From Candidatus Kapaibacterium sp. (lineage in GTDB: Bacteria > Bacteroidota > Ignavibacteria > Kapaibacteriales > UBA2268): DNA of 64,000 bases. The first letter of the stretch is position 1; each line of letters begins with the position of its first letter. Under the pieces are notes generated by a model. That model did no database searches, had not been told where the DNA came from, and worked only from the letters and a program-made list of their open reading frames with translations. Location: contig OY762428.1 in assembly GCA_963665665.1 (NCBI GenBank), positions 544,001 through 608,000 of the forward strand. Direction: 5' to 3'. This document shows positions 1,168 through 59,745 of this stretch, piece by piece. The translations under genes were made by a program, and so were the position numbers.

Positions 1168-1660
1168 ATTCTTTCCTTGCATATAGTCCCTGTATTACCA
1201 TAAGTAATTTACAAAATTCAGAGAATATAAAGCAATTTATATACCAAAATATAATTCAATAAATACCTGTAGTACCTACAATCGCTATAAGCAATTAAGC
1301 AAAAATTTATGGAGAAACACCGAATCAACACTATGAAGAATTACTATTGTAACCTTTTCTTTAGCAAAGTGTAGTTTATAAAAATGAAAATTTTATCGAT
1401 TCAGGAGATAAATCACGTACTAATTCATTATGGAAATAATATTGTTGCTTTCTGATTGCAGGAATCATACAAGCCCAAAACGGGATTTTTTTTATTAATA
1501 CTTTACAAATACAATTAATGATATAATTTTTCACACAAAAAAAATCACTCAAAATAAGCCCGGGCATTTCTTACCTACAATTTACCCAAAACCAAATACC
1601 CCCTCCCGGGCTTAAATATTTCAATCATTGATTTTGATAATCCCCCCCTCAACGCTTCCC

Positions 1661-1775
1661 CCTCATTACGAACTTGTACTTGGTAATGCAGTTTTCTTTT
1701 GAATCTGAGCTTCTCTATTTCAAAGTAGTACTTTGCAGGAAATATTTCTTCCCAAGCGGGGGCTTGGGAAGGAGG
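1661..1775. repeat. ~115-bp multi-hairpin MITE/REPIN-like repeat, copy A
   Basis: Several short hairpins (CTTCCCAAGC-GGGG-GCTTGGGAAG, CAAAGTAGTACTTTG); its reverse complement aligns along its length with 12851-12964. Confidence 0.8.
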
Positions 1776-1781
1776 GAAAGA

Positions 1782-2090
1782 TTTTCTGCTATTTTGCATG
1801 GATTCTTCGATCGCTTCGCTCCGTCAGAATGACGGATGGGAATGTCCCCCGCTGGCGGGGGTGTCCGAAGGACGGGGGTGGATTTCCGGAAAATTCCCCT
1901 CGTTGAGGGGTGGCGAGCGCAGCGAGTCGGGGTGGATTCTTTTTCCGATTGAAGTTATTATAGTTGGCAGAAGTAGAATGTCATTCTGAGCGCCAGCGAA
2001 GAATCCATTCTTCATACATTATCTGCAAACAAAGATGGATTCTTCGGTCGCAAGCTCCGGAAGCCTGCCCCGACGTGTCGGGGAATGACA
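1782..2090. repeat. Cluster of REP-like GC-rich hairpins (GTCATTCTGA..GAAGAATCC type and CCCCTC..GAGGGG type)
   Basis: GGATTCTTCG..CAGAATGAC (1800-1833), CCCCCGCTGGCGGGGG, CCCCTCGTTGAGGGG, GTCATTCTGAGCGCCAGCGAAGAATCC (1979-2006); homologous modules at 29404-29680 on the opposite strand. Confidence 0.8.
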
Positions 2091-2289
2091 ACATAATACC
2101 TCCTTCTCCCGCCCTATCCCCCCGTTTTTCCACCCCAATTAACCAAGCACCGGACTTAATTCCCCATCCTGTGGTATCAATGAATCGAATAATTTCCTTA
2201 ATTCAATGCTGTTTTTAATCAAACCCCTGATGTTGGGGCTAATCGCTTTGTTGTCGGAGCTTTAAACTGTCTTGGCCGGAGTTATTGAA

Positions 2290-2607
2290 CTACTGTTTGG
2301 CCTTATTGTAGTGAAATTTGGCCTCATTGAACACTTGGTTGATCTTACTGAACACTTGGTTGATCTTACTGAACACTTGGTTGACCTTACTGAACACTTG
2401 GTTGACCTTACTGAACACTTGGTTGACCTTACTGAACACTTGGTTGGCCTTATTGAACACTTGGTTGACCTTATTGAACACTTGGTTGGCTTTACTAAAC
2501 ACTTGGTTGACTTTACTGAACACTTGGTTGGCTTTACTGAACACTTGGTTGATCTTACTGAACACTTGGTTGGCTTTACTGAACACTTGGTTGATCTTAC
2601 TGAACAT
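2290..2607 (-). other. Putative 105-aa heptad-repeat ORF MF(SKINQVF)13NEAKFHYNKAKQ
   Basis: ATG in the central palindrome; same start, C-terminus and stop as 28971-29204; expression unproven. Confidence 0.35.
2329..2601 (-). repeat. Tandem array, 13 x 21 nt (GAACACTTGGTTGA(T/C)CTTACT)
   Basis: Units start every 21 nt from 2329 to 2581; minus frame reads (S/N)K(I/V/A)NQVF heptads. Confidence 0.95.
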
Positions 2608-2989
2608 GTTCTTTGCCTCCGACCAAGAGTTCAATGCCTTCAAACAAGGCAGCAATGACTTCGACCAAGGGGTCAATGACTTCAACCAAGGCATCATTAT
2701 CTTCAACCAAGGCATCAATAACTTCGACCAAGGTATCAATGACTCCGACCAAGGCATCAATGACTTCGAACAAGGCAGCAATGACTCCGACCAAGGCAGC
2801 AATAACTCCGACCAAGGCAGCAATGGCTCCGACCAAGGCAGCAATAACTCCGACCAAGGCAGCAATAACTCCGACCAAGGCAGCAATGACTCCGACCAAG
2901 GCGGCAATAACTCCGACCAAGGCGGCAATGACTCCGACCAAGGCATCAATAGATTCGACCAAGGCGTCAATAGATTCGAACATTGGTGA
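2606..2989 (+). other. Putative 127-aa heptad-repeat ORF MFFASDQEFNAFKQGS(NDxDQGx)n
   Basis: ATG in the central palindrome; first 17 residues identical to 28679-28972 (-); expression unproven. Confidence 0.3.
2612..2989 (+). repeat. Tandem array, 18 x 21 nt (AATRACTYCGACCAAGGCAKC consensus)
   Basis: Contiguous 21-mers counted from 2612; plus frame reads N(D/N)(S/F)DQG(S/I/G) heptads. Confidence 0.95.
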
Positions 2990-3002
2990 AATGCCGCTGC
3001 CC

Positions 3003-3113
3003 CTTCCTACCTCCCCCCGGCCCCCTCCTTCGGAAGGAGGGGGAGTTAATCTTATGATATTTAACTTCTTATCCCCTCCTAATGTAGGAGGGGATTATAG
3101 GGGTGGTTTTCTT
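3003..3113. repeat. GC-rich hairpin doublet (CCCCCTCCTTCGGAAGGAGGGGG / CCCCTCCT..AGGAGGGG)
   Basis: Near-identical reverse complement at 28528-28638; interrupts the 21-nt array, which resumes at ~3118. Confidence 0.85.
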
Positions 3114-3333
3114 GCTTTGACTCCGACCAGGGCAGCAATAACTCCGACCAAAGCAGCATTATTTTTTAAACATTGGGAATATGTCGGGGAATGCGGGATT
3201 GAAGTATATTATAATTCGGACGGAGGAAAAATGATCATAACAATTCCGGGTAAAGGCACAGCCCTGCCTGAATAGTGTAATTATTACATATATTAAACCC
3301 GGAAAATAAAATCTGTTTGAAATTGTTGAGTGA

Positions 3334-4659
3334 TTAATATTCGGGATCACCCCCGAGTTTTTTAATCCACATCCTGACTTTTCCGGATAAAGAATCACGC
3401 TTTTGGTATCTCTTTAAAAATTCATTGAAATCGCGCACAGCATATAAATATTTTTCATCATGTTTGAATGCAATAGCCCGGTTCATATAAGTTCTGGGAT
3501 TATCCGGAAAAAGTTCTATTGCGAGGGTATAATCTTCGGCTGCTTTTTTATAATAGCGCATATTCATGAATATATTTCCGCGCGTTATATATGCCTGTAC
3601 AAATTTCGGATTAATTGTAATAGCCTTTGTAAGGTCATATATAGCTTCCTTATATCTGCTCATTCCTGCCTTTGCGTTTCCCCTGCCAAGAAAGGCAGCC
3701 GCAAGTTCAGGATTCAGTTCCAGTGCCTGGTCGTAATCCATAATTGCTTCAGCATATTTTTTCATAAATGTAAAAGCATTCCCCCTGTTATAGTAAAGAA
3801 CAGGGTTTTTGGGATTAATTGAAATTGCCTTGTCGTAATCAGTAATAGCGTTATCATAATCTTTTACAGTCAGATAGGATAGAGCCCTGTAATTATATAC
3901 CTCTACTGATTTTGGTTTGAGCTGGATTACCATGTTGAAATCCTGTATGGCTTCTTCATGCTTTTTCAACTTGCTAAGCACCATGCCACGGTAATTCAGC
4001 GCCATAACAGATTCCTTGTTCACTTCGATAGCCGAGGAATAATCTTTAACAGCTTCCTTAAGCTTGTCCATGTTGCCATAAGCAATACCTCTTGAAATAA
4101 AGGCTTTTTCGTGCTTTGGGTCCAACTGAATAACATGTGTAAAGTCATCAACAGCAAGCTGGAAATCTTTTTTATCAAAATAACAATTGCCCCGGTTAAG
4201 ATATGAAAGCAGATGCCCCGGGTTCAGATCGATAGAAGTATTAAAATCTTCAATAGCTTCATCAAAATTTCCCATTTCTTTCTTTGCCACTCCTCTTTTG
4301 TAATAGGCAAAGGAAAATTCTGAATTTTGTTCAATAGCAAGGGTCAGATCCTTAATAGCCCTTTGATATTTCCTCATATCAACAAGAACGCTTCCTCTTT
4401 TGAAATAGGCAAAGGAAAAGCTGCCGTTCAGAGTAATAGCATTATTGTAATCTGTAAGGGCTTCATTGAACATATTTAATTCATACAAAGAGTTTCCCCT
4501 TTTAAAATAAGCAAAGGAAGACCTCGGATTACGTTCTATGGCATTTGAATAGAACTCTACAGCTTTCTCAAACTCACCCTGTTCAAATTCCTGATCACCT
4601 TTTTCGACCCATTTTTCCGAAGAGTAATTCTCAACATTCGATTTTTCATCTGATTTCAC
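3334..4659 (-). CDS. TPR-repeat protein (~12 TPRs)
   Basis: Repeated 34-aa AY(F/Y)xRG...A..D(Y/F)..AI..NP motif over the whole length; GTG start. Confidence 0.9.
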   Translation of the reverse strand: MKSDEKSNVENYSSEKWVEKGDQEFEQGEFEKAVEFYSNAIERNPRSSFAYFKRGNSLYELNMFNEALTDYNNAITLNGSFSFAYFKRGSVLVDMRKYQRAIKDLTLAIEQNSEFSFAYYKRGVAKKEMGNFDEAIEDFNTSIDLNPGHLLSYLNRGNCYFDKKDFQLAVDDFTHVIQLDPKHEKAFISRGIAYGNMDKLKEAVKDYSSAIEVNKESVMALNYRGMVLSKLKKHEEAIQDFNMVIQLKPKSVEVYNYRALSYLTVKDYDNAITDYDKAISINPKNPVLYYNRGNAFTFMKKYAEAIMDYDQALELNPELAAAFLGRGNAKAGMSRYKEAIYDLTKAITINPKFVQAYITRGNIFMNMRYYKKAAEDYTLAIELFPDNPRTYMNRAIAFKHDEKYLYAVRDFNEFLKRYQKRDSLSGKVRMWIKKLGGDPEY

Positions 4660-4788
4660 CTGCTCACCATCAAAAAATGATACAGCACTTTACTAATAAT
4701 GCATTAAATTTGTACTTAATAACATTCTTATTAAAATAAAAAAATTTGAATTGTTTTTGAAAGTATTATTCTTATCCGGGAAATTTTT

Positions 4789-5331
4789 ATGAAAGTTTTA
4801 GTTCCAATTGCAAACGGAACAGAGGAAATGGAAGCGGTAATAATCATCGATATGCTTAGAAGAGCAGGCATTGAAGTAGTTGTGGCCGGAACAGAAAATG
4901 AAGTATTATGTTCGCGCGGGGTTGTTTTGAAGCCGGACGTACTGATAGAGACAGTTTTAACCGAAAAATTCGATGCAATAATTATTCCCGGCGGATTGGA
5001 AGGAACGGAAAACCTTATTAATTCCGAACCGATGAAAGAAATTATTGAATATCACAAAAATAATAGTGGAATATTTGCTGCAATATGCGCCGCACCGTTG
5101 ATACTTGATGAAGCAGGATTATTTAGCGACAGTACTGAATTTACATCACACCCATCGGTAAAGGAAAAATTCAGCCATGGTTCATACCAGAATGATAAAG
5201 TTGTTATATCAAATAGCATTATTACATCTGCAGGTGCCGGAACTGCTTTTGATTTTGCTCTTGAAATTATTAAATTACTTACAGGCAGGGATATGGCAGA
5301 TAAAATTTCAAAATCAATTTTATACAGATGA
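4789..5331 (+). CDS. DJ-1/PfpI (ThiJ/YajL) family protein
   Basis: GTEEMEA..LRRAGI, IPGG, AICAAP nucleophile motif, TSAGAG. Confidence 0.92.
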   Translation: MKVLVPIANGTEEMEAVIIIDMLRRAGIEVVVAGTENEVLCSRGVVLKPDVLIETVLTEKFDAIIIPGGLEGTENLINSEPMKEIIEYHKNNSGIFAAICAAPLILDEAGLFSDSTEFTSHPSVKEKFSHGSYQNDKVVISNSIITSAGAGTAFDFALEIIKLLTGRDMADKISKSILYR

Positions 5332-28247: not shown

Positions 28248-28970
28248 CCCGATAGTTACAACCCGATAAATAGTAGTTTAAAAGAATTTAATTTTCTTTT
28301 GAGTAATATAGTAAAAATATCAATAAATTAAAAAGGGTTCGAAAAATAAATAACAACCCCCGATAGAAATGTTCTCCCGGATAATCCGGGGCAGCAAAAA
28401 GTGAAAAAACTGCCTGTCCGCAACGTTTTCTTCTTCAATCCTGCAAACCTTCGGAAGGTTTGTATTCAAATTCAATATCCACGTGCTCTATCTCGTGGAT
28501 AAGGGAGGCAAAGCCCCGAAGCAAAGAAAGAAAACCACCCCTGTATTCCCCTCCTCCCCGAGGAGGGGATAAGAAGTTAAATATCATAGAATTAACTCCC
28601 CCTCCTTTCGAAGGAGGGGGCCGGAGTGAGGTAGGAAGAGGCGGAAGCAAAGCACCAAAGTTTTAACCTATTGCCGCCTTATTCTTCTTCAAAGCCCGCC
28701 CCTTCGGGGAGGGTTTGGGAGGGGTCGATGCCATTGCAGTAATGTTTTGCTTTATTGACGCCTTGGTTGAAGTCATTGATGCCTTGTTCGGAGTCATTGC
28801 CGCCTTGTTTGAAGATAATGAACTCTTGTTTGAAGCTATTGCACCGATGTTTGAAGCTATTGCACCGATGTTTGAAGATAATGAACTCTTGGTCGACACT
28901 ATTGCAGCAATGTTTTGCTTTATTGCTGCCTTGTTTGAAGGCATTGAACTCTTGGTCGGAGGCAAAGAAC

Positions 28971-29204
28971 ATGTTCAATAAGGCCAAACAAGCGTGGGAT
29001 AATGTCAAACAAGCGTGGGATGAAGTCAAACAAGCGTGGGATGAAGTCAAACAAGCGTGGGATGAAACCAAACAAGCGTGGGATGAAACCAAACAAGCGT
29101 GGGATGAAGTCAAACAAGCGTGGGATGAAGTCAAACAAGCGTGGGATGAAGTCAAACAAGCGTGGGATGAAGCCAAATTTCACTACAATAAGGCCAAACA
29201 GTAG
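28971..29204 (+). other. Putative 77-aa heptad-repeat ORF MFNKAKQAW(DEVKQAW)nDEAKFHYNKAKQ
   Basis: Homologous position and frame to 2290-2607; expression unproven. Confidence 0.35.
28977..29165 (+). repeat. Tandem array, 9 x 21 nt (GATGAAGTCAAACAAGCGTGG)
   Basis: Direct reading; plus frame reads DE(V/T)KQAW heptads. Confidence 0.95.
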
Positions 29205-29403
29205 TTCAATACCTCCGGCCAAGGCAGTTTAAAGCCCTGCTAACAAAGCAATTAGCCCAAACATCAGTATTCTGATTCAAAACAGCATTGAATTAAGGAA
29301 ATTATCCGGTTCATTGAAACCACCGGATGGGGAATTAAGGCCGGCGGCCTGTTCATTTGGGTGGAAGAACGGATAAACTGAGCAAAAGAATGAGGTGTTA
29401 TGT

Positions 29404-29680
29404 TGTCATTCTGACGGAGCGAAGCGACGGAAGAATCCATGCAAAATAGCAGAAAATTTATGAAGAATGGATCCTTCGCTTCGCTCAGGATGACATCCCG
29501 GCTCTGCCCTCGTCATATTCAATAGCCACGTGCTTTAGCTCGTGGATAAGGGAGGCTAAAAAAAGAAACCACCCCAGCCTGTCCCGACGTGTCGGGAACT
29601 CGCTGCGCTCGCCACCCCTCAACGAGGGGAATTTTCCGGAAATCCACCCCCGCCCTTTCCCGACTCGTCGGCACCAGCGG
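29404..29680. repeat. Cluster of REP-like hairpins
   Basis: GTCATTCTGACGGAGCGAAGCGACGGAAGAATCC...GGATCCTTCGCTTCGCTCAGGATGAC, CCACGTGCTTTAGCTCGTGG, CCCCTCAACGAGGGG; same modules as 1782-2090 in a different order. Confidence 0.8.
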
Positions 29681-51888: not shown

Positions 51889-54800
51889 TTAAATCTCTAC
51901 TATCATCTTCTTCAGCTTGTCAGTCTGATCATGAAGGTAATGGGAGAGACGCAAAGCAAGGTCCGGATGTTTGGTAAGCAGCGTCTTCAGTTTGTCTTTC
52001 GGCAGCTTCATTATTCTCGCGGAACTTATTACCGGCTGGGCTGTAACAGAGGATTTGTCATCCCACACAGCACCTTCACCGAAAATCTCTCCTGTACCAA
52101 TTACATTGATAGTACCGAGCCATCCCATTACCGAGTGCCTCATCTGCTCGACAGCGCCCTCACGAATAAGGTAAACATCCCTGTTCATATCATTTTCCCA
52201 AACAACTTCCTCATCGGGATCGTAATATCTTTCCATGGCAATGCCGGCTAATGATGAAATAGCCTCGTCATCCATTTCTTTGAAGAGATCAAGTGAATTC
52301 AGGAATTCTATTCTCTGCTGCAATGAATTAACCACCATATTTCTCATTTTATTTTCATCAGGTTTCTTCCATTCAAACCCGCTGAGTTCAAGAGCTTTGG
52401 CTGTTTTATCAGAAAGGATATCCATCTTTGTGGCGTTGATTTTATCGAAGTCCTCGCTCAGCCAACCCTTGTGAAGCATTATTGCCTCGATAAACGGCCT
52501 GAATCCATCTCTTTCGAAATTTGAATAAAGGAAGTGAATGAATTCTTTCAGGTCGAATGTTTCCACGTTAAGGTTCAACTTACTGCCGGATAATATGTCT
52601 GAAATATCAACCTTCATCGGATTTTCGATGTGGTAAGTACTGTTCAACAGGTTTTCCCTTCCGGAAAGAGTAAGCACGGCATTACTGACGTAATCAACAA
52701 AAGAAAAGTCGTAATAATCACCCTTTAGAACAGCACCAATATTTATAAATGCACGGAAAATGTTATAAAATGCATTGTCATCAATATTCTGCTGGTGAAC
52801 TCCTGTCTCCGAATTATAAACTATATTTCCTATACGATAAATATTGGTTTTTATCCCTTTTTCACGGGCTGCGATAACCCTTGTTTCGGCTTCGAGTTTT
52901 GTTTTAACATAATAGTTATCTACTTCCTGGCCAATATCACATTTATCCTCGGAAAATAGAACAACATCATTGCCGGGAACATGTCCGAGAGCAACTGAAA
53001 TTGTCGAAATATGGTGAAAATCTTTTTTACGTCCGTCACCGGCAAAGGCAAGAATATTATCGGTTGCTTTCACATTAGCCCGATAGAAATCTTCGTAAGC
53101 GCCGTAGTGCTTAACAATCGCAGCTGAGTGCCATACACAGTCGCATTCTTCACAAAGCCGCGAATAATTTTCATTATCCAAACCCAAACTGTCTTCGGCA
53201 ATATCTCCGCATATTACCTCCACACCTGATTCCTGAATATCAATATAATCATTGGGGAAATAGAATTTCAGTTTATTTTCCAGCCTTTGCATTGCTTTAT
53301 CATTACTGTCGCCTCGCACAATGGCAGTAATTTTAACACCTTCTTTGCGGCTTAAATCCCTTAGCAGATAAATACCGAGATAACCTGTAGCCCCTGTTAA
53401 CAGTATATGCTTATAGCCATTGTGTACAGTCAGGTCAAGGCAGGCAAGCTGGCTGACTTCTTTCTGATATTCCTCTTCCTCGGTTTTCAATTCCGGTACT
53501 GTTCTGTAATCAACATCATTGAACTTAAATTCTCTCAGTTTTTCAAGCCTGATTTTCAGGTTATCCTCAGATTCATTGATATTTTCTGCAAGTTCTTCGA
53601 TTGTCGGATATTCAAAAATGTCATTTACCCGGACGTCGAAGTCCTTCTGGAGTTTAGCCGTCAGCGCCACGGCTTTCAGGCTGTGTCCGCCAAGTGAGAA
53701 GAAATCGTCTTTGATACTTATCTTATCAAGCCCGAGAATTTCCATCCATGCGTTAGCGATCTTTTCTTCCTTTTTATTTCGGGGAGCAACAAATTCTGCC
53801 CCTGAGGAAATTTTATCACCCGGTTCGGGAAGCTGGCGACGGTCAACCTTGCCGTTTGAGGTAAGCGGAAATTCATCCATGTGGATAAAGTATGACGGAA
53901 CCATGTAGTCCGGCAGATCCTTATGGAGAAATTCCCTGAGTTCATTAACAGTGATCTCATTTTCAGATACATAATAGGCACAGAGATATTTCTCGCCGTG
54001 TGTTTCTTCTTTAGCCAGAACAACTACTTTATTTATTTCATTATGTTTCAGCAGTTTATCTTCAATTTCTCCCAGTTCAATCCTGAATCCGCGTATCTTC
54101 ACCTGGAAGTCTATCCTTCCAAGATATTCCATTTCGCCGGACGGCAGCCTTCGGGCAAGGTCGCCGCTTCGGTACATTCTTTCTTTAGGGCGGTATGGGT
54201 TGGGAATAAATCTCTCCCCGGTTAGTTCTTCACGATTCATATAGCCACGTGCAACGCCTTCACCTCCAACACAAAGCTCTCCTGCAACTCCGTAGGGGAC
54301 GATATGCTGTTCAGTATCCATTATATAGCAGGTCAGTGTTGGTATAGGAAGCCCGATATTACTGATATTATTATCAATTTCATACTGACCTATTTCTTTA
54401 TAAGTCACATGTACGGTTGTTTCAGTGATACCATACATATTAATAAGTTTTGTTTCCGGGTAGCGTTTGTGGAAATTGTTCAGCAATATCGGCTTCAGAG
54501 CCTCACCGCCAAATATTACAAAGCGAAGGCCAAGTAATTTCTCTGTAAAATGTTCCTCGGTTTCTATCAGGTTATAGAATGCCCCGGGAGTCTGATTCAG
54601 TACTGTCACTTTTTTATCTGAAAGCAATTTGATAAAATCTTCCGGGTTTTGTGCTTCTTCCTTCGGAACAACCACAAGCTTACCACCGAACAGCAGCGGC
54701 CCGTACATTTCCCAAACCGAGAAATCAAATGAGAATGAATGGAATAAAGTCCAGACATCATGCTCGTCAAAATCAAACTGAAAGCGGCTGTTTTTCAGAA

Positions 54801-57800
54801 GGCGGACAAGATTGTGATGTTCAAGCATAACTCCCTTGGGTTTGCCTGTTGATCCTGAAGTATATATGATATAAATCATATCATCCGGACAGGATATTGG
54901 TTCAAGATTTTCACATTTTTCAGAGTAAAGTGCCTGATCATAAACATCAATGATTTCACCCTCAAAATCCAGCCTTTTTCCAAGTTCACTGCTTGATAGA
55001 AGAATCTTCGTACCACTGTCCGACAACATGAAATCAATTCTTTCCGGTGGATATTCGGGAATAACCGGCAGGTAAGCCCCGCCAGCTTTGATAATAGCCA
55101 GGGCACTGAGAACCATTTCCATTGAACGTTCCAGAAAAATGGCTACAATTGTATCAGCTTTAACGCCTTTACTTCTTAGTATTTTCGCAAGGCTGTTTGC
55201 TCTGTCGTTAAGTTCGCTGTATGTCCATGATTTGTCACCCAGCTCGATTGCTGTTCTTTCAGGAAAGCGTCTTACTGTTTCCTCGAATATCTCGTGGGCA
55301 GTTTTATTCTCCGGCCATTCTGCTTCCGTGTGGTTAAATTCATATAAAAGCGCTTTAAGTTCGTGGGAATCAATCATCTTCATGCTGCCAATTCTCATTT
55401 CCGGAGCCAGGCACATTTCGTTCATTATATTTTCCAGGTGGCGACACATTCTTGCAGCTGTTTCTTCTTTAAACAGGCTCGTTCTGTAGTACAGTTTTAG
55501 GTTGAGCATTTCATTCTGCTCTGTAAAGGTAAATGAAAGATCAAACTTAGCGCTGTGATTATTGAATTCCTTAATAACTGAATTTATTCCTTCAGATTGG
55601 AATTCGTAGCCTCCCATATTCTGCAGAACAAGTATTACATCAAATAATGGATTACGCCCCGATTCCCGGTTAACATTTATCTTATCATAAATATTCTCGA
55701 TCGGATAGTTCTGGTTTTCATACACGTCAAACAGTGTTGCTTTAACTTCATTAATCAGCTGAATAAAAGTCTTGTCTTTTTCGGGGAGGGCCCTGACTGG
55801 CAAAGTATTTACGAACATTCCGATCATATCCTCGGCCTCCTCTTTCAACCTGCCGCCCGTGGGCGAACCAATAACAATATCATTCTGATTTGTATATTTT
55901 GCCATAAGAACATACAGAGCAGACATAAGTACAACGTTCAGCGTAGTGTCCTGAGCTTTGGCTATCATATTGATTTTATTTGTAAGTTCAGGCATTATAT
56001 CAATTTCAAAAATATCGCCTTCATAATCGACCGATGCCTTTCTCGGCATATCTGTAGGAAGATCGAGTGTTGGTACATCAGCAAAGGTTTTTAGCCAGAA
56101 TTCCTCCTGTTTATGTATTTCATCGGACTGAATAATTTTATCTTCCCAACTAACATAATCCTTAAAGTGCAGTTTAAGAGCTTCGGGAGTTTCAGCGTTG
56201 TAAAATGCTGAAAGGTCCTTCATAAGAATAGTTAGTGAAATCCCGTCGAAAATAATATGGTGGAAATCCATCAGCAGGCATACTTTTTCTTTGGATATTC
56301 TTAGAAGTTTGAACCTTGCAAGGGGAGCCTTCTGCAGGTTGAACGGCCTGATAAATTCCAGCATTTTATCATTTATTTCATTATCCGAACAGTCGGCGAT
56401 CAAACGTTTTATCTTTGCCTTGGGATGAACTACCTGAACCGGAGTTCCATTTTTAACCTCAAATGATGTCCTTAATGCTTCGTGCCTTTCAACTAGTTTT
56501 TCAATAGCCTCGCTCAGGCGGGAAAGGTCAACATTTCCTTCAAGAGTTAAAATGCAGGGCACATTATATGTAGTACCGATATTTTTCATTTGCTCCAGTA
56601 CGAACAGCTGCCTTTGAGCGGATGATGCAGGGTAGAAGTTCGCAGGTTCTGCCGGAGTAAGTTCAATTATTTCATGCTTATCAGTCTGGTCAATATATTC
56701 TGCGAGCTTGGCAACTGTAGTCAGGTCAAAAAGGTTTTTAAGGCTAATTCTCAGGCTGAATTTTTTTTCTATCCTTGCCTGTAGAACAACCGCTTTAAGG
56801 GAGTGTCCGCCAAGATCAAAGAAATCATCATTTTTGCCGATCTTATCAATGCCAAGAATTTTTCCGAAAATTGAAGCAATGATTTTTTCTGTTTCGGTTT
56901 CAGGCTCTATATACTCTGTTTTTGATTCTTCAATAACTTTTGGTTCCGGCAGGGCCTTCCTGTCCACTTTGCCAACCGGAGTAAGCGGAATGGAATCAAT
57001 CCTCATCAGGTACTGCGGTATCATGTAATCCGGCAGAACCTCCCTTGCAGCAGCCTTAATTTTACCGGCATCCATTTCTTGATCTGCTATATAATAAGCG
57101 CAAAGATAAACACCCCGGGTATCCTGAATATCAACAACCACGGCATCTTTGATACCTTCAATATTTTTAATGGCTGTCTCAATCTCGCCAAGTTCAATCC
57201 TGTACCCCCTAACTTTAACCTGGCGATCAATCCTGCCAAGGTATTCAATCGTTCCGTCCGGCAGCCAGCGGCAAAGATCTCCGGTCCGATACATTCTTTC
57301 GCCGGTAACAGGGTTAGTAACAAAAACGGCATCTGTTTTTTCCGGCAGGTTCAGATAGCCTCTGGCAAGCTGTGCCCCTCCGACACATAGTTCACCCGGA
57401 ACTCCAATAGGCTGTAAATTGCTGAATTTATCAAAAATATAGCAAGGCGAATTCTTCACCGGATAGCCGATTGGAATATTCTTTTTAATTTCATTAACAT
57501 AGTAATATGTTGATATAACCGTATTCTCTGTCGGGCCGTAGCCATTAATCAGATCGAAACCGGTTTTTTTATATGACCTTAATTTCTCTCCGCCTGTAAT
57601 CAGCCAACGCATACTTTTATTCTTGGTAATCTCCATAAATTGTTCGCCAAACTGGGTTATCATCACAGCGGTTGTAATCTTATTCCGGACTATATAATCC
57701 TCAGTCTCAACAATAGACTTCCTTATCTCTTCAGATAAAATATGAAGTTCAGCACCGGCAAGCAACTGAGGGAAGATTTCAATTACGGAAGCGTCGAAAC

Positions 57801-59745
57801 TAAATGCCAAAGTTTTAAGGCAGCGGTCATTTTCATCCAGTTTGCCTTCTTCAATCAGCCACTGGCACATGTTAACAAGGGAATGATTCTCAATCATTAC
57901 TCCTTTGGGTTTGCCTGTGGAGCCTGATGTATAAATAATATAAGCAAGGCTATCAGGGCCGGACTCGGATGGTATTTTTTCCACCAAAAGGTAGTTGTTT
58001 CTGTCATCCAGATCAATTACAGCTCCGTTAAAATCAATTTCTTCGTATAAATGTCTTTGTGATATTAATATAGGAGCGGCGCTGTCGTCCAGCATATATT
58101 TTTTTCTGTCCGCAGGATATGAGGGATCTATCGGAACGAAACAGCTGCCTGATTTCAGTACTGCAATAAAAGCAACAATTATTTCTACTGACCGCTCAGC
58201 AAGAATTACAACAGGAACATCCGGACCGCCTCCATGTTCAATTATCCTTGATGCCAGGGCATCGGCCTTTTTATTTAGTTCAGCGTATGTAAGCTTATCA
58301 TCTTTGAATACTACAGCAGTTCTGTCAGAGAACATCCGGGCTGTCTTAGCAAACAGATCCTGGTAGGTAAAATCATGTTCAGGCAGTTCAACCGGCTTAT
58401 TGAAATGGTTCAGTATAATTGATTTTTCATAAACAGGCAGAATATCAATATCTGACAGTGCTATTTCCGAATTTTCAATCACCTGGAAAACGATTCGGTT
58501 AAGTGTATCGATAATTTCAACGGCTTTTTTATCGTTTATCAGATCAAGGTTGTAATTGATATTGAATTCAATAGGATTAAGTTCAGGATTATTATAATCA
58601 TAGGAAATAAACGCACATAATTCGCCCGGCCCTACATAAGAATTCACACTCGTAGATGTTGTTTCATTATCCAGAGTTTCAAAATTCTGTGCCAGGCTGA
58701 TAGTTACCATTTCATCAAACTTACCATGAATATTTTCCAGGGCATCAATTATTAGGTCGTAGGACAAATTTCCATGATCCACATATTTCTTAATTTTATT
58801 ATTAACAAATTTTATCAAATCAGAAAATGGGCCGTTAATATCTGATGTGATTCTGAAAGGCAGGTAGTTAACAAACATGCCAAAAGTATCTTTGAACTCC
58901 TCGGGCCGGTTTGCTATTGGAATGCCAATTGCAATATCGTTTTTGCCGCTTATCCTTGTCAGGTAAACATACATAGCAGCAAGGTAAAGTTTAAAAGCGG
59001 ATGTATGATGCTCACGTGTAAATTCAAATATTTTTTCACTTTCCTCTTTAGAAAGGAAAATAGTTTTAAGGCCGTTGGCCTTGCTTTCCATTTTATCAAA
59101 AGGATTAACCGCAACTGGTTCGGGAAGCGTTGAAAATTCTTCAAGCCAATAATTTTTATCCTCTTCGGCCCTGTTGCTTTTCAGGTAATTACTTTCATGG
59201 CCGGCAAAATCAGTATATGATTTTGTAATATTGGGTTCAGGTGTAACTCCTGCTTCAAATATTTGAGCTAATTCTGATATACGGTCTATCATCAGTTTCA
59301 TACACCAACCATCAACAATGGTGTGGTGAATATTCAGGTAATAGCCGTTTTTTCCGTCAGGAAGCTTTAAAAGCACAAATGAAAAAAGGTCAGAATCGAA
59401 TAGTTGAATTGGCTTACGGGAAATTGATTTTACCCATTCATTCATTTTAGTATTGTTTGTTTTTTCCCGTTCTTCAGATCCGGAAAAATCGATTATTTCA
59501 AATTCTCTTTCTTCATATTCAGCAATATATTGAAATATTTTATCTTCAACTTTAGTATATCTTATTCTTATACCTACGGTTTCATAAATGAAAAAATTGA
59601 TTGCTTTGGAGATTATTTCCGGAGAATAATCTTTTTTGAACCTTACTATCCTTGGAATATTCCACAAGGCGTTTTCCGGTTCCAGCAGGTCTATAAATAG
59701 CAGCCTCATTTGCGGGTGCGAAATCGGAATCAATTCTTTTTCCAT
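51889..59745 (-). CDS. Two-module NRPS C-A-T-C-A-T-R with C-terminal cNMP-binding-like domain
   Basis: HHTIVDG and HHIIFDG (C); YTSGSTGKPKG x2 (A); LGGHSL x2 (T); TGATGYLG and YVKTK (reductase); LDLF..M...I..LA...VYLI.EG.V...GEIFGE (CAP/Crp fold). Confidence 0.93.
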   Translation of the reverse strand: MEKELIPISHPQMRLLFIDLLEPENALWNIPRIVRFKKDYSPEIISKAINFFIYETVGIRIRYTKVEDKIFQYIAEYEEREFEIIDFSGSEEREKTNNTKMNEWVKSISRKPIQLFDSDLFSFVLLKLPDGKNGYYLNIHHTIVDGWCMKLMIDRISELAQIFEAGVTPEPNITKSYTDFAGHESNYLKSNRAEEDKNYWLEEFSTLPEPVAVNPFDKMESKANGLKTIFLSKEESEKIFEFTREHHTSAFKLYLAAMYVYLTRISGKNDIAIGIPIANRPEEFKDTFGMFVNYLPFRITSDINGPFSDLIKFVNNKIKKYVDHGNLSYDLIIDALENIHGKFDEMVTISLAQNFETLDNETTSTSVNSYVGPGELCAFISYDYNNPELNPIEFNINYNLDLINDKKAVEIIDTLNRIVFQVIENSEIALSDIDILPVYEKSIILNHFNKPVELPEHDFTYQDLFAKTARMFSDRTAVVFKDDKLTYAELNKKADALASRIIEHGGGPDVPVVILAERSVEIIVAFIAVLKSGSCFVPIDPSYPADRKKYMLDDSAAPILISQRHLYEEIDFNGAVIDLDDRNNYLLVEKIPSESGPDSLAYIIYTSGSTGKPKGVMIENHSLVNMCQWLIEEGKLDENDRCLKTLAFSFDASVIEIFPQLLAGAELHILSEEIRKSIVETEDYIVRNKITTAVMITQFGEQFMEITKNKSMRWLITGGEKLRSYKKTGFDLINGYGPTENTVISTYYYVNEIKKNIPIGYPVKNSPCYIFDKFSNLQPIGVPGELCVGGAQLARGYLNLPEKTDAVFVTNPVTGERMYRTGDLCRWLPDGTIEYLGRIDRQVKVRGYRIELGEIETAIKNIEGIKDAVVVDIQDTRGVYLCAYYIADQEMDAGKIKAAAREVLPDYMIPQYLMRIDSIPLTPVGKVDRKALPEPKVIEESKTEYIEPETETEKIIASIFGKILGIDKIGKNDDFFDLGGHSLKAVVLQARIEKKFSLRISLKNLFDLTTVAKLAEYIDQTDKHEIIELTPAEPANFYPASSAQRQLFVLEQMKNIGTTYNVPCILTLEGNVDLSRLSEAIEKLVERHEALRTSFEVKNGTPVQVVHPKAKIKRLIADCSDNEINDKMLEFIRPFNLQKAPLARFKLLRISKEKVCLLMDFHHIIFDGISLTILMKDLSAFYNAETPEALKLHFKDYVSWEDKIIQSDEIHKQEEFWLKTFADVPTLDLPTDMPRKASVDYEGDIFEIDIMPELTNKINMIAKAQDTTLNVVLMSALYVLMAKYTNQNDIVIGSPTGGRLKEEAEDMIGMFVNTLPVRALPEKDKTFIQLINEVKATLFDVYENQNYPIENIYDKINVNRESGRNPLFDVILVLQNMGGYEFQSEGINSVIKEFNNHSAKFDLSFTFTEQNEMLNLKLYYRTSLFKEETAARMCRHLENIMNEMCLAPEMRIGSMKMIDSHELKALLYEFNHTEAEWPENKTAHEIFEETVRRFPERTAIELGDKSWTYSELNDRANSLAKILRSKGVKADTIVAIFLERSMEMVLSALAIIKAGGAYLPVIPEYPPERIDFMLSDSGTKILLSSSELGKRLDFEGEIIDVYDQALYSEKCENLEPISCPDDMIYIIYTSGSTGKPKGVMLEHHNLVRLLKNSRFQFDFDEHDVWTLFHSFSFDFSVWEMYGPLLFGGKLVVVPKEEAQNPEDFIKLLSDKKVTVLNQTPGAFYNLIETEEHFTEKLLGLRFVIFGGEALKPILLNNFHKRYPETKLINMYGITETTVHVTYKEIGQYEIDNNISNIGLPIPTLTCYIMDTEQHIVPYGVAGELCVGGEGVARGYMNREELTGERFIPNPYRPKERMYRSGDLARRLPSGEMEYLGRIDFQVKIRGFRIELGEIEDKLLKHNEINKVVVLAKEETHGEKYLCAYYVSENEITVNELREFLHKDLPDYMVPSYFIHMDEFPLTSNGKVDRRQLPEPGDKISSGAEFVAPRNKKEEKIANAWMEILGLDKISIKDDFFSLGGHSLKAVALTAKLQKDFDVRVNDIFEYPTIEELAENINESEDNLKIRLEKLREFKFNDVDYRTVPELKTEEEEYQKEVSQLACLDLTVHNGYKHILLTGATGYLGIYLLRDLSRKEGVKITAIVRGDSNDKAMQRLENKLKFYFPNDYIDIQESGVEVICGDIAEDSLGLDNENYSRLCEECDCVWHSAAIVKHYGAYEDFYRANVKATDNILAFAGDGRKKDFHHISTISVALGHVPGNDVVLFSEDKCDIGQEVDNYYVKTKLEAETRVIAAREKGIKTNIYRIGNIVYNSETGVHQQNIDDNAFYNIFRAFINIGAVLKGDYYDFSFVDYVSNAVLTLSGRENLLNSTYHIENPMKVDISDILSGSKLNLNVETFDLKEFIHFLYSNFERDGFRPFIEAIMLHKGWLSEDFDKINATKMDILSDKTAKALELSGFEWKKPDENKMRNMVVNSLQQRIEFLNSLDLFKEMDDEAISSLAGIAMERYYDPDEEVVWENDMNRDVYLIREGAVEQMRHSVMGWLGTINVIGTGEIFGEGAVWDDKSSVTAQPVISSARIMKLPKDKLKTLLTKHPDLALRLSHYLHDQTDKLKKMIVEI

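Follow-up and report, generated by a model that had tools for sequence, protein, structure and literature searches.

A dispersed non-coding element on a strict 21-nt register in Candidatus Kapaibacterium, probably derived from the upstream region of a multicopy gene family

The locus described here raises the question of what kind of element is formed by two mirror-image arrays of 21-nt units placed around a short palindrome. It lies in a 64,000-nt stretch of a Candidatus Kapaibacterium sp. genome (contig OY762428.1, positions 544,001 to 608,000; hereafter the window). An earlier note on this DNA had placed 13 units at 2329-2601 and 18 units at 2612-2989 on either side of the palindrome GAACATGTTC (2602-2611), and these coordinates hold. 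Its match of an outer left unit (2267-2286) to a right-arm unit at 18 of 20 positions was confirmed, as was a second copy of the architecture, with its palindrome at 28967. The element was further found to extend past the arrays, with the 21-nt register running through all of it, which the note had not described. Its layout in window coordinates is as follows:

1660..2089, no strand: mosaic of REP-like palindromic modules on the left, adjoining the element, off the 21-nt register and varying between copies
2090..2328, plus strand: left flank made of 11 degenerate units of 21 nt (2098-2328), a mosaic without gaps across copies
2329..2601, plus strand: left array of 13 x 21 nt, in the position of the distal array of gene-linked leaders
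2602..2611, no strand: palindromic deletion junction, read as the scar of a 27 x 21 = 567 nt loss (AT-rich core)
2612..2989, plus strand: right array of 18 x 21 nt, related to the left array in inverted orientation
2990..3115, plus strand: double-hairpin block of 126 nt (6 x 21), in register
3116..3180, plus strand: two more right-type units and the end of the repeat
28526..29404, minus strand: second short copy, with flank 29404-29166, 9 left units and palindrome 28976-28967, and on its right side ~15 right units with a 63-nt hairpin block and a 126-nt block

An assembly artefact was rejected on two observations: the element exceeds its flanks tens of times in summed contig depth, and flank contigs of a second strain, from another study, enter the element at the same locus. 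The mosaic at 1660..2089 has matches in up to ~140 genome bins, with module lengths that vary freely, and the hairpins of the 126-nt block also flank DUF559 nuclease genes elsewhere in the genome. The units are contiguous with no spacers, and we agree with the earlier note that the architecture is not that of a CRISPR, a REP or an IS, though REP-like hairpins flank the element and an IS targets its hairpins. Elsewhere in the window, a weak 21-nt periodicity (z 3.1) over the start of a DJ-1/PfpI gene (4725-5145) is probably due to chance, and the region 51889-59745 encodes a two-module NRPS that carries a reductase domain and, unusually, a cyclic-nucleotide-binding domain at its C-terminus.

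A search with the left flank recovered 53 copies of the element in the 5.46-Mb genome, a copy number missed by the earlier note. Two further loci carry the core without a flank match, and the family occupies ~73 kb of the genome. The copies comprise 39 short ones, like that in the window, and 14 long ones in which a 560-nt core lies between the arrays; this core is 84% AT, has stops in every one of the six frames and peaks in autocorrelation at 21, 42 and 63. All are laid out on a fixed 21-nt grid, with a short copy equal to a long copy minus 27 units (27 x 21 nt), and it is from this comparison that the junction was read as a scar. Three junction types occur in the 39 short copies (26, 9 and 4), two of them perfect 10-bp palindromes. 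Flank, arrays and core share a single register with the hairpin blocks. In 53/53 copies the first right unit is in phase, with a few copies losing phase further out, and phase is kept across the right-arm hairpin blocks of 63 and 126 nt. Arm lengths and unit numbers vary independently between copies, with 200 left and 412 right unit variants being counted. At G000:C1:1775192-1777676 an exact tandem duplication (1396-bp period) of the element and its REP mosaic was observed.

The strictness of this register was most apparent outside the arrays. No gaps were found in the best alignments of 39 full-length flanks or 16 cores, even though the flanks carry on average 20 substitutions from consensus and the cores 43 substitutions; by comparison, most copies of a control dispersed repeat, at 80-86% identity, have 1-7 gap openings. 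These results bear on the reading of the element as a functionless, minisatellite-bearing repeat similar to BOX or a BrickBuilt-like MITE, in which the H-FN3 link described below would be ancestry without present function and the register would be kept merely by whole-unit slippage and gene conversion between tandem units. We regard this reading as unlikely. The freely varying unit numbers fit it; however, flank and core are too diverged to slip as tandem repeats and are gapless all the same, and the three junction types and both hairpin blocks keep phase.

Such a repeat would also suit the narrow distribution of the element. Close DNA homologues were absent from 40 relatives (1/41 genomes, own included) and a three-unit pattern search of 400 class members did not find the element (1/401, own included). 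Scans of a wider collection gave 36, at least 120 and 11 loci; coding heptads and unrelated arrays made up most of them. Among the 167 matches listed, a good likeness to the right array was seen only in L052, which is from a Candidatus Kapaibacterium record, and a match to the flank in none, and clustering of the proteins beside collection matches revealed no recurrent array-linked family. In a Lewinellaceae record (L056:3790-4100) a 21-nt array precedes the gene of another helical protein, no more than a lead, which has no clear match in this genome. T9SS domains were also noted in the relatives. Within the genome itself, the tandem repeats are dominated by period 21 and its multiples, in several sequence families.

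The element is non-coding. The 21-nt period equals seven codons, and it was considered whether the arrays encode small heptad-repeat proteins, since open frames of 100-230 codons cross the window copy and some frames have fewer stops than expected from independent columns. This is highly improbable, as no frame of the right array is open in more than 22/39 short or 4/14 long copies, the core has stops in all frames, the open frame and its strand vary among 41 homologue arrays, and nothing over the Pfam cut-off was found over the arrays.

The mirror symmetry was assessed on the arms of the window copy, which match in register at 156/273 positions (10-14/21 unit by unit). This value was reached by 22 of 5000 column-permuted left arms, each taken at the best of 21 registers. 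Consensus units of the window copy alone agree only weakly, at 11/21 (p=0.13, not significant), and the long-type left consensus agrees with the window right consensus at 15/21 (p=0.002). The inversion proposed in the earlier note is thus real in register, the 14/21 quoted there being a best case. Folding as RNA was much stronger than for dinucleotide shuffles (z -10.4). Against tandem-preserving controls the values were -216 vs -166+/-22 kcal/mol, with the best of 25 controls at -227.5, and -218 vs -184+/-25 for the other strand.

A structured RNA or ssDNA rod or cruciform, with arms paired in register and the short form arising by excision of the loop, would draw on the inverted relation in excess of controls, on the z of -10.4 and on the two different perfect 10-bp palindromes at the junction. 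It is nevertheless very unlikely, and the earlier proposal that the long rod is the purpose of the element is not borne out. The fold goes only modestly beyond tandem-preserving controls, the arms are unequal and vary independently, and a 560-nt loop separates them in the long copies. Window positions 1500-3500 gave no Rfam match at gathering score (eight weak matches lie far under the cut-off). Of the 27 array pairs found in comparable multi-array elements elsewhere, in other genomes, none is significantly inverted, and neither is a second element family of this genome (family 2, below). The fold-back is therefore particular to the window element family and is best read as a lineage-specific by-product, although transient fold-back may have produced the palindromic junctions.

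Two further likenesses named in the earlier note were compared with the element. Foldback elements of Drosophila have inverted arms of tandem units around an optional central segment; unlike in these, the arms here are internal and only 57% complementary, no transposase is associated, no target-site duplication (TSD) was seen, and the inversion is not shared by related elements. No terminal inverted repeats (TIRs) or target duplications were seen, which speaks against a fold-back transposon. Repeats about two helical turns apart also occur in plasmid iterons, which lie next to an AT-rich unwinding region, and in centromere arrays such as parC/tubC, and the element resembles them in this spacing next to an AT-rich tract. 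It differs from them in that no Rep or partition gene is linked, the 53 copies are chromosomal and the unit sequence is not conserved between loci.

The origin of the element is indicated by a gene family of the same genome, here named H-FN3, an uncharacterised family with a ~210-residue helical bundle and 0-2 FN3 domains. The genome has eight members, six of which are 304-aa copies that are 95-98% identical (G000:C1 163859, 860839, 3453482, 4629095, 4924662 and 4943212). One of these six has an in-frame internal deletion, one a damaged start and one an IS in its leader. The 840 nt upstream of the 304-aa members are 21-periodic up to the ATG. In a genome-wide scan with a 63-nt core window, the 16 long copies ranked at the top (56-62/63), followed by eight diverged gene-less loci (46-56) and all six 304-aa leaders (44-46/63), with unrelated sites at 39 or less. 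This is the single clearly significant window between core and leader (z 5.8). Over 500 nt, the ungapped alignment of core and leader has 50% identity vs 37+/-3% off register, and ties between two registers one unit apart. As a member of the H-FN3 upstream lattice, the element thus has leader homology (50% ungapped, one strong window) and has no H-FN3 coding sequence directly downstream.

At the equivalent of the ATG, where several loci show ATT or ATA and some an SD-like remnant, the AT-rich tract comes to an end, and in long copies the right array begins just after this position. The eight diverged gene-less leaders, AT-rich, 21-periodic and colinear with the core, were observed at G000:C1 1194072, 1732920, 2032535, 2358439, 2399595, 2666422, 3765302 and 5074622, and one diverged long copy (81%) at G000:C1 4991374. 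No H-FN3 coding stub was detectable in the 53 copies (best 5.7 bits) and the left flank has no significant match to the gene leaders. One copy lies 426 bp upstream of the 416-aa H-FN3 gene, across a REP mosaic, a position that may be due to chance.

A second and clearer case of a leader without its gene was found in family 2, which has 32 periodic regions (e.g., G000:C1 235366-236450, 4357400-4358300 and 5005100-5005600) made up of one or two 21-nt arrays, a 189-nt leader, an ATG and a ~20-codon stub. The stub is that of the 425-aa H-FN3 gene at 2118628. The 21 copies examined align gap-free to -189..+63 of this gene, the ATG being present in 19/21, and identity drops to background after +63 (~20 codons). 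The leader is therefore 9 x 21 nt long and the family ends three units past the ATG. In all, three leader lineages have spread gene-less in this genome. Long arrays of 98- and 231-nt modules surround small genes directly downstream of the 425-aa gene (G000:C1:2119930-2124130).

On this comparison the element probably descends from an H-FN3 gene leader. It would be a gene-less copy of the upstream region, in which the coding sequence was replaced by an inverted relative of the left array and by hairpin blocks, and an in-register deletion of the 567-nt AT core would then have given the head-to-head form of the window copy. Against this model count the modest identity of core and leader, its tie between two registers and the lack of a detectable stub, and also a further feature: read on the minus strand, the end of the left flank has an SD-like word (2109-2098) and an ATG (2094-2092) that run into the REP module. 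This outward-facing pair occurs at the left end in 44/53 copies and is not accounted for by a leader.

The pairing of H-FN3 genes with a 21-nt period was also observed in other genomes. H-FN3 protein matches occur in 33/201 genomes of the order (some to FN3 only) and the helical domain in 25/301 genomes of the phylum, own genome included in both counts and often in several copies. From 70 loci, 61 distinct ORFs were obtained, of which 59 had enough upstream sequence. A 21-nt period within 600 nt upstream was found for 38/59 homologues and downstream for 1/57, with control rates of 5.5% (109 other ORFs) and 8% (626 intergenic gaps) in this genome; assembly Ns in some of the upstream windows and near-identity between some loci mean that these counts are not independent. 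Among 22 more distant loci the period was found upstream in 11/21 and downstream in 3/20. About a third to a half of homologues thus have no detectable upstream period, and in two distant homologues (L282 and L283) the period lies downstream instead of upstream. The arrays differ in sequence at each locus, stop a median 125 nt short of the ATG and have no open frame in common, both frame and strand differing among 41 of them. In one genome (G484) gene-less multi-array elements were found, with no H-FN3 match within the fetched loci in 4/7 loci. A TAnnTTTG motif is present in 14/57 homologue leaders.

The protein was modelled by AlphaFold as two helix-helix-long-helix repeats and an FN3 domain (pLDDT 96). 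A fold search confirmed the FN3 domain (Z ~12) and found only generic coiled coils for the helical domain (best Z 9.2, rmsd 4.5, 137 aligned); comparison with a viral library added no information. No match to DUF6261 (PF19775) was found in the genome or among 54 aligned H-FN3 members, the only lead being an Atlas neighbour (0.84, 32% DUF6261); a profile search of representatives was swamped by FN3 repeats. H-FN3 is acidic (pI <6 in 51/61) and has no invariant residue, which makes it a poor candidate for a DNA-binder or enzyme. No conserved regulator or recombinase was found upstream of H-FN3 in the 46/52 upstream ORFs scanned, the neighbours being unrelated, and a sigma-54 -24/-12 motif (GG-N10-GC, own pattern) was absent from all 61 homologue leaders and from one long copy. 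The acidic protein, the lack of a conserved adjacent regulator and the lack of a sigma-54 motif suggest that any binder is probably a host protein.

The copies of the element are mosaics of one another. When two columns are separated by more than one unit, ~70% of the pairs violate the four-gamete test. In 38 flanks r2 has dropped from 0.42 to 0.05 at a distance of 17-21 nt, which would correspond to shuffling by exchange tracts of about one unit. Linkage decays more slowly in 15 cores and slowly in family 2, and a signal of exchange at unit boundaries, viewed without a significance test, is present in the flank and absent in the core.

This pattern, together with the arrays, admits the reading that the register is made rather than selected. 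A copying process tied to H-FN3 loci, e.g., template jumping on a protein scaffold, would duplicate, delete and swap 21-nt steps, make new arrays continually and disperse leaders. The arrays are young, different at each locus and always 21-periodic, linkage ends at about one unit, family 2 has a leader of 9 x 21 nt and stops three units past the ATG, and a weak period persists over the last 130 nt and on into the coding sequence, which fits such a process. However, no enzyme is linked and the upstream neighbours of 46 homologues are unrelated, the core has no unit-boundary signal, family 2 linkage decays slowly, and periodicity in the coding sequence is expected from heptad helices. We therefore consider it quite unlikely.

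As regards placement, 22/53 copies lie between convergent genes vs 169/910 gaps of >=300 nt, counts which rest on our own ORF calls. The neighbouring genes are unrelated and there is no replichore bias (22/53). Placement between convergent genes is parasite-like, and the element has the MITE features of being non-coding, intergenic and multicopy. The functionless-repeat reading gains from this, as it does from the unrelated neighbours, from clustering with other palindromic repeats and from the use of the element as a target by an IS. Against it, the homologues conserve the upstream period but not the sequence and no TIR or TSD was seen. At the ends of repeat-masked blocks of the 53 copies no shared inverted word was found, although a short TIR within the mosaic could be missed because the ends are blurred by REP mosaics. 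Direct repeats at the ends are short and inconsistent, with no empty allele for comparison; mobility is inferred, as no empty site was seen.

Two multicopy transposase families are present in the genome and one inserts into the element. Five of seven copies of this IS, which has a 370-aa transposase and which we take to be IS4-like, lie in right-arm hairpins of the element (G000:C1 137822, 997129, 2158379, 2211153 and 2484469), which suggests a target preference for these hairpins. HUH/Y1, GIY-YIG and DUF559 genes were also identified. A stand-alone Y1 HUH transposase gene (G000:C1:1821400-1822350), a candidate mobiliser, lies between hairpin modules of a type that also occurs to the left of the 304-aa H-FN3 leaders. 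Three identical DUF559 genes lie in tandem inside hairpin modules that also end the element (G000:C1:1353959-1356790), and two GIY-YIG genes alternate with tRNA-like fragments, followed by 4.4 perfect 84-bp repeats (G000:C1:1891300-1892480). The element joins a REP-like module at a fixed junction that is visible in most of the 53 copies. Given this fixed point and the presence of the nuclease genes, the copies may have spread as passengers of the REP-like hairpin mosaics, with recombination started at hairpins by enzymes of the HUH/Y1, GIY-YIG or DUF559 types, a route to which we give a little less than even weight.

What would hold the register is suggested by its length. As 21 bp corresponds to two turns of B-DNA, such a register would place short words, and AT tracts as well, along the same face of the helix and only whole-unit changes would be tolerated. 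For the same reason the most likely user of the lattice is a DNA-binding protein that is cooperative and sequence-tolerant, which would be a host protein controlling the H-FN3 gene. Of the roles proposed in the earlier note, phased sites at two helical turns is the best reading, the register being kept everywhere it was tested, with the binding itself a prediction. We put the lattice as a DNA platform for a binding protein at about an even chance. The fuller account, in which gene-less leader copies form a phased protein-binding platform that is spread with palindromic repeats and shuffled in short tracts, is the one we favour, if only slightly. It gives no reason for the gap-free upkeep of copies without a gene, which counts against it.

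Comparison with known repeats places the element near several without identity to any. Tandem repeats of constant 20-21-nt length in bacteria are described as non-coding, free in sequence and present as several families per genome (PMC8161180, PMC6749651), and a protein polymerising on DNA, or small RNAs, were suggested for them by Subirana and Messeguer in 2021 (PMC8161180). The element is like these satellites in being non-coding, in keeping a 21-nt period and in belonging to a genome with several sequence families. As described in the accessible parts of that work (PMC8161180), however, the satellites have no linked gene family, leader, AT core or inverted pair, and no register through non-repetitive flanks. 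The BrickBuilt MITE of Porphyromonas gingivalis, which consists of a leader, a tandem minisatellite of 23-nt units in a single array and a tail, with IS5-like terminal inverted repeats (Klein et al., 2015, PMC4596501), is likewise a multicopy, species-specific intergenic element of Bacteroidota; unlike it, the element has two arrays, a 21-nt register, no TIR seen and a probable ancestry in the upstream region of a gene. BOX of Streptococcus pneumoniae (Croucher et al., 2011, PMC3049150) is similarly a modular dispersed repeat with variable tandem modules, enriched at convergent genes and clustered with other repeats. It differs in its TIRs, likened to those of ISSpn2, and in that no helical-phase constraint is reported in the portion of that study available. 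No description of the element, or of a pairing of arrays with H-FN3, was found in the literature as far as its text was accessible, and an earlier satellite survey of 1241 genomes may bear on novelty.

A wider reading is that the 21-bp lattice and the H-FN3 gene form an undescribed, phylum-wide mobile or regulatory module that is defined by helical period and not by sequence. In it, a protein scaffold would read or rewrite DNA in 21-nt steps, renew arrays, shuffle units from locus to locus and disperse leaders without their gene, and so account for part of the 20-21-nt bacterial satellites. This is doubtful at present. That such repeats keep a constant length with free sequence is stated as an open puzzle in the accessible text of PMC8161180. 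The present case ties repeats of this kind to the upstream region of one unstudied gene family, with a period that holds through hundreds of non-repetitive bases, through deletions and through hairpin inserts, and the puzzle thereby becomes testable. It illustrates a route by which a gene control region becomes a dispersed repeat without IS-type ends, and an origin from leaders may explain a known, so far unexplained kind of bacterial repeat DNA.
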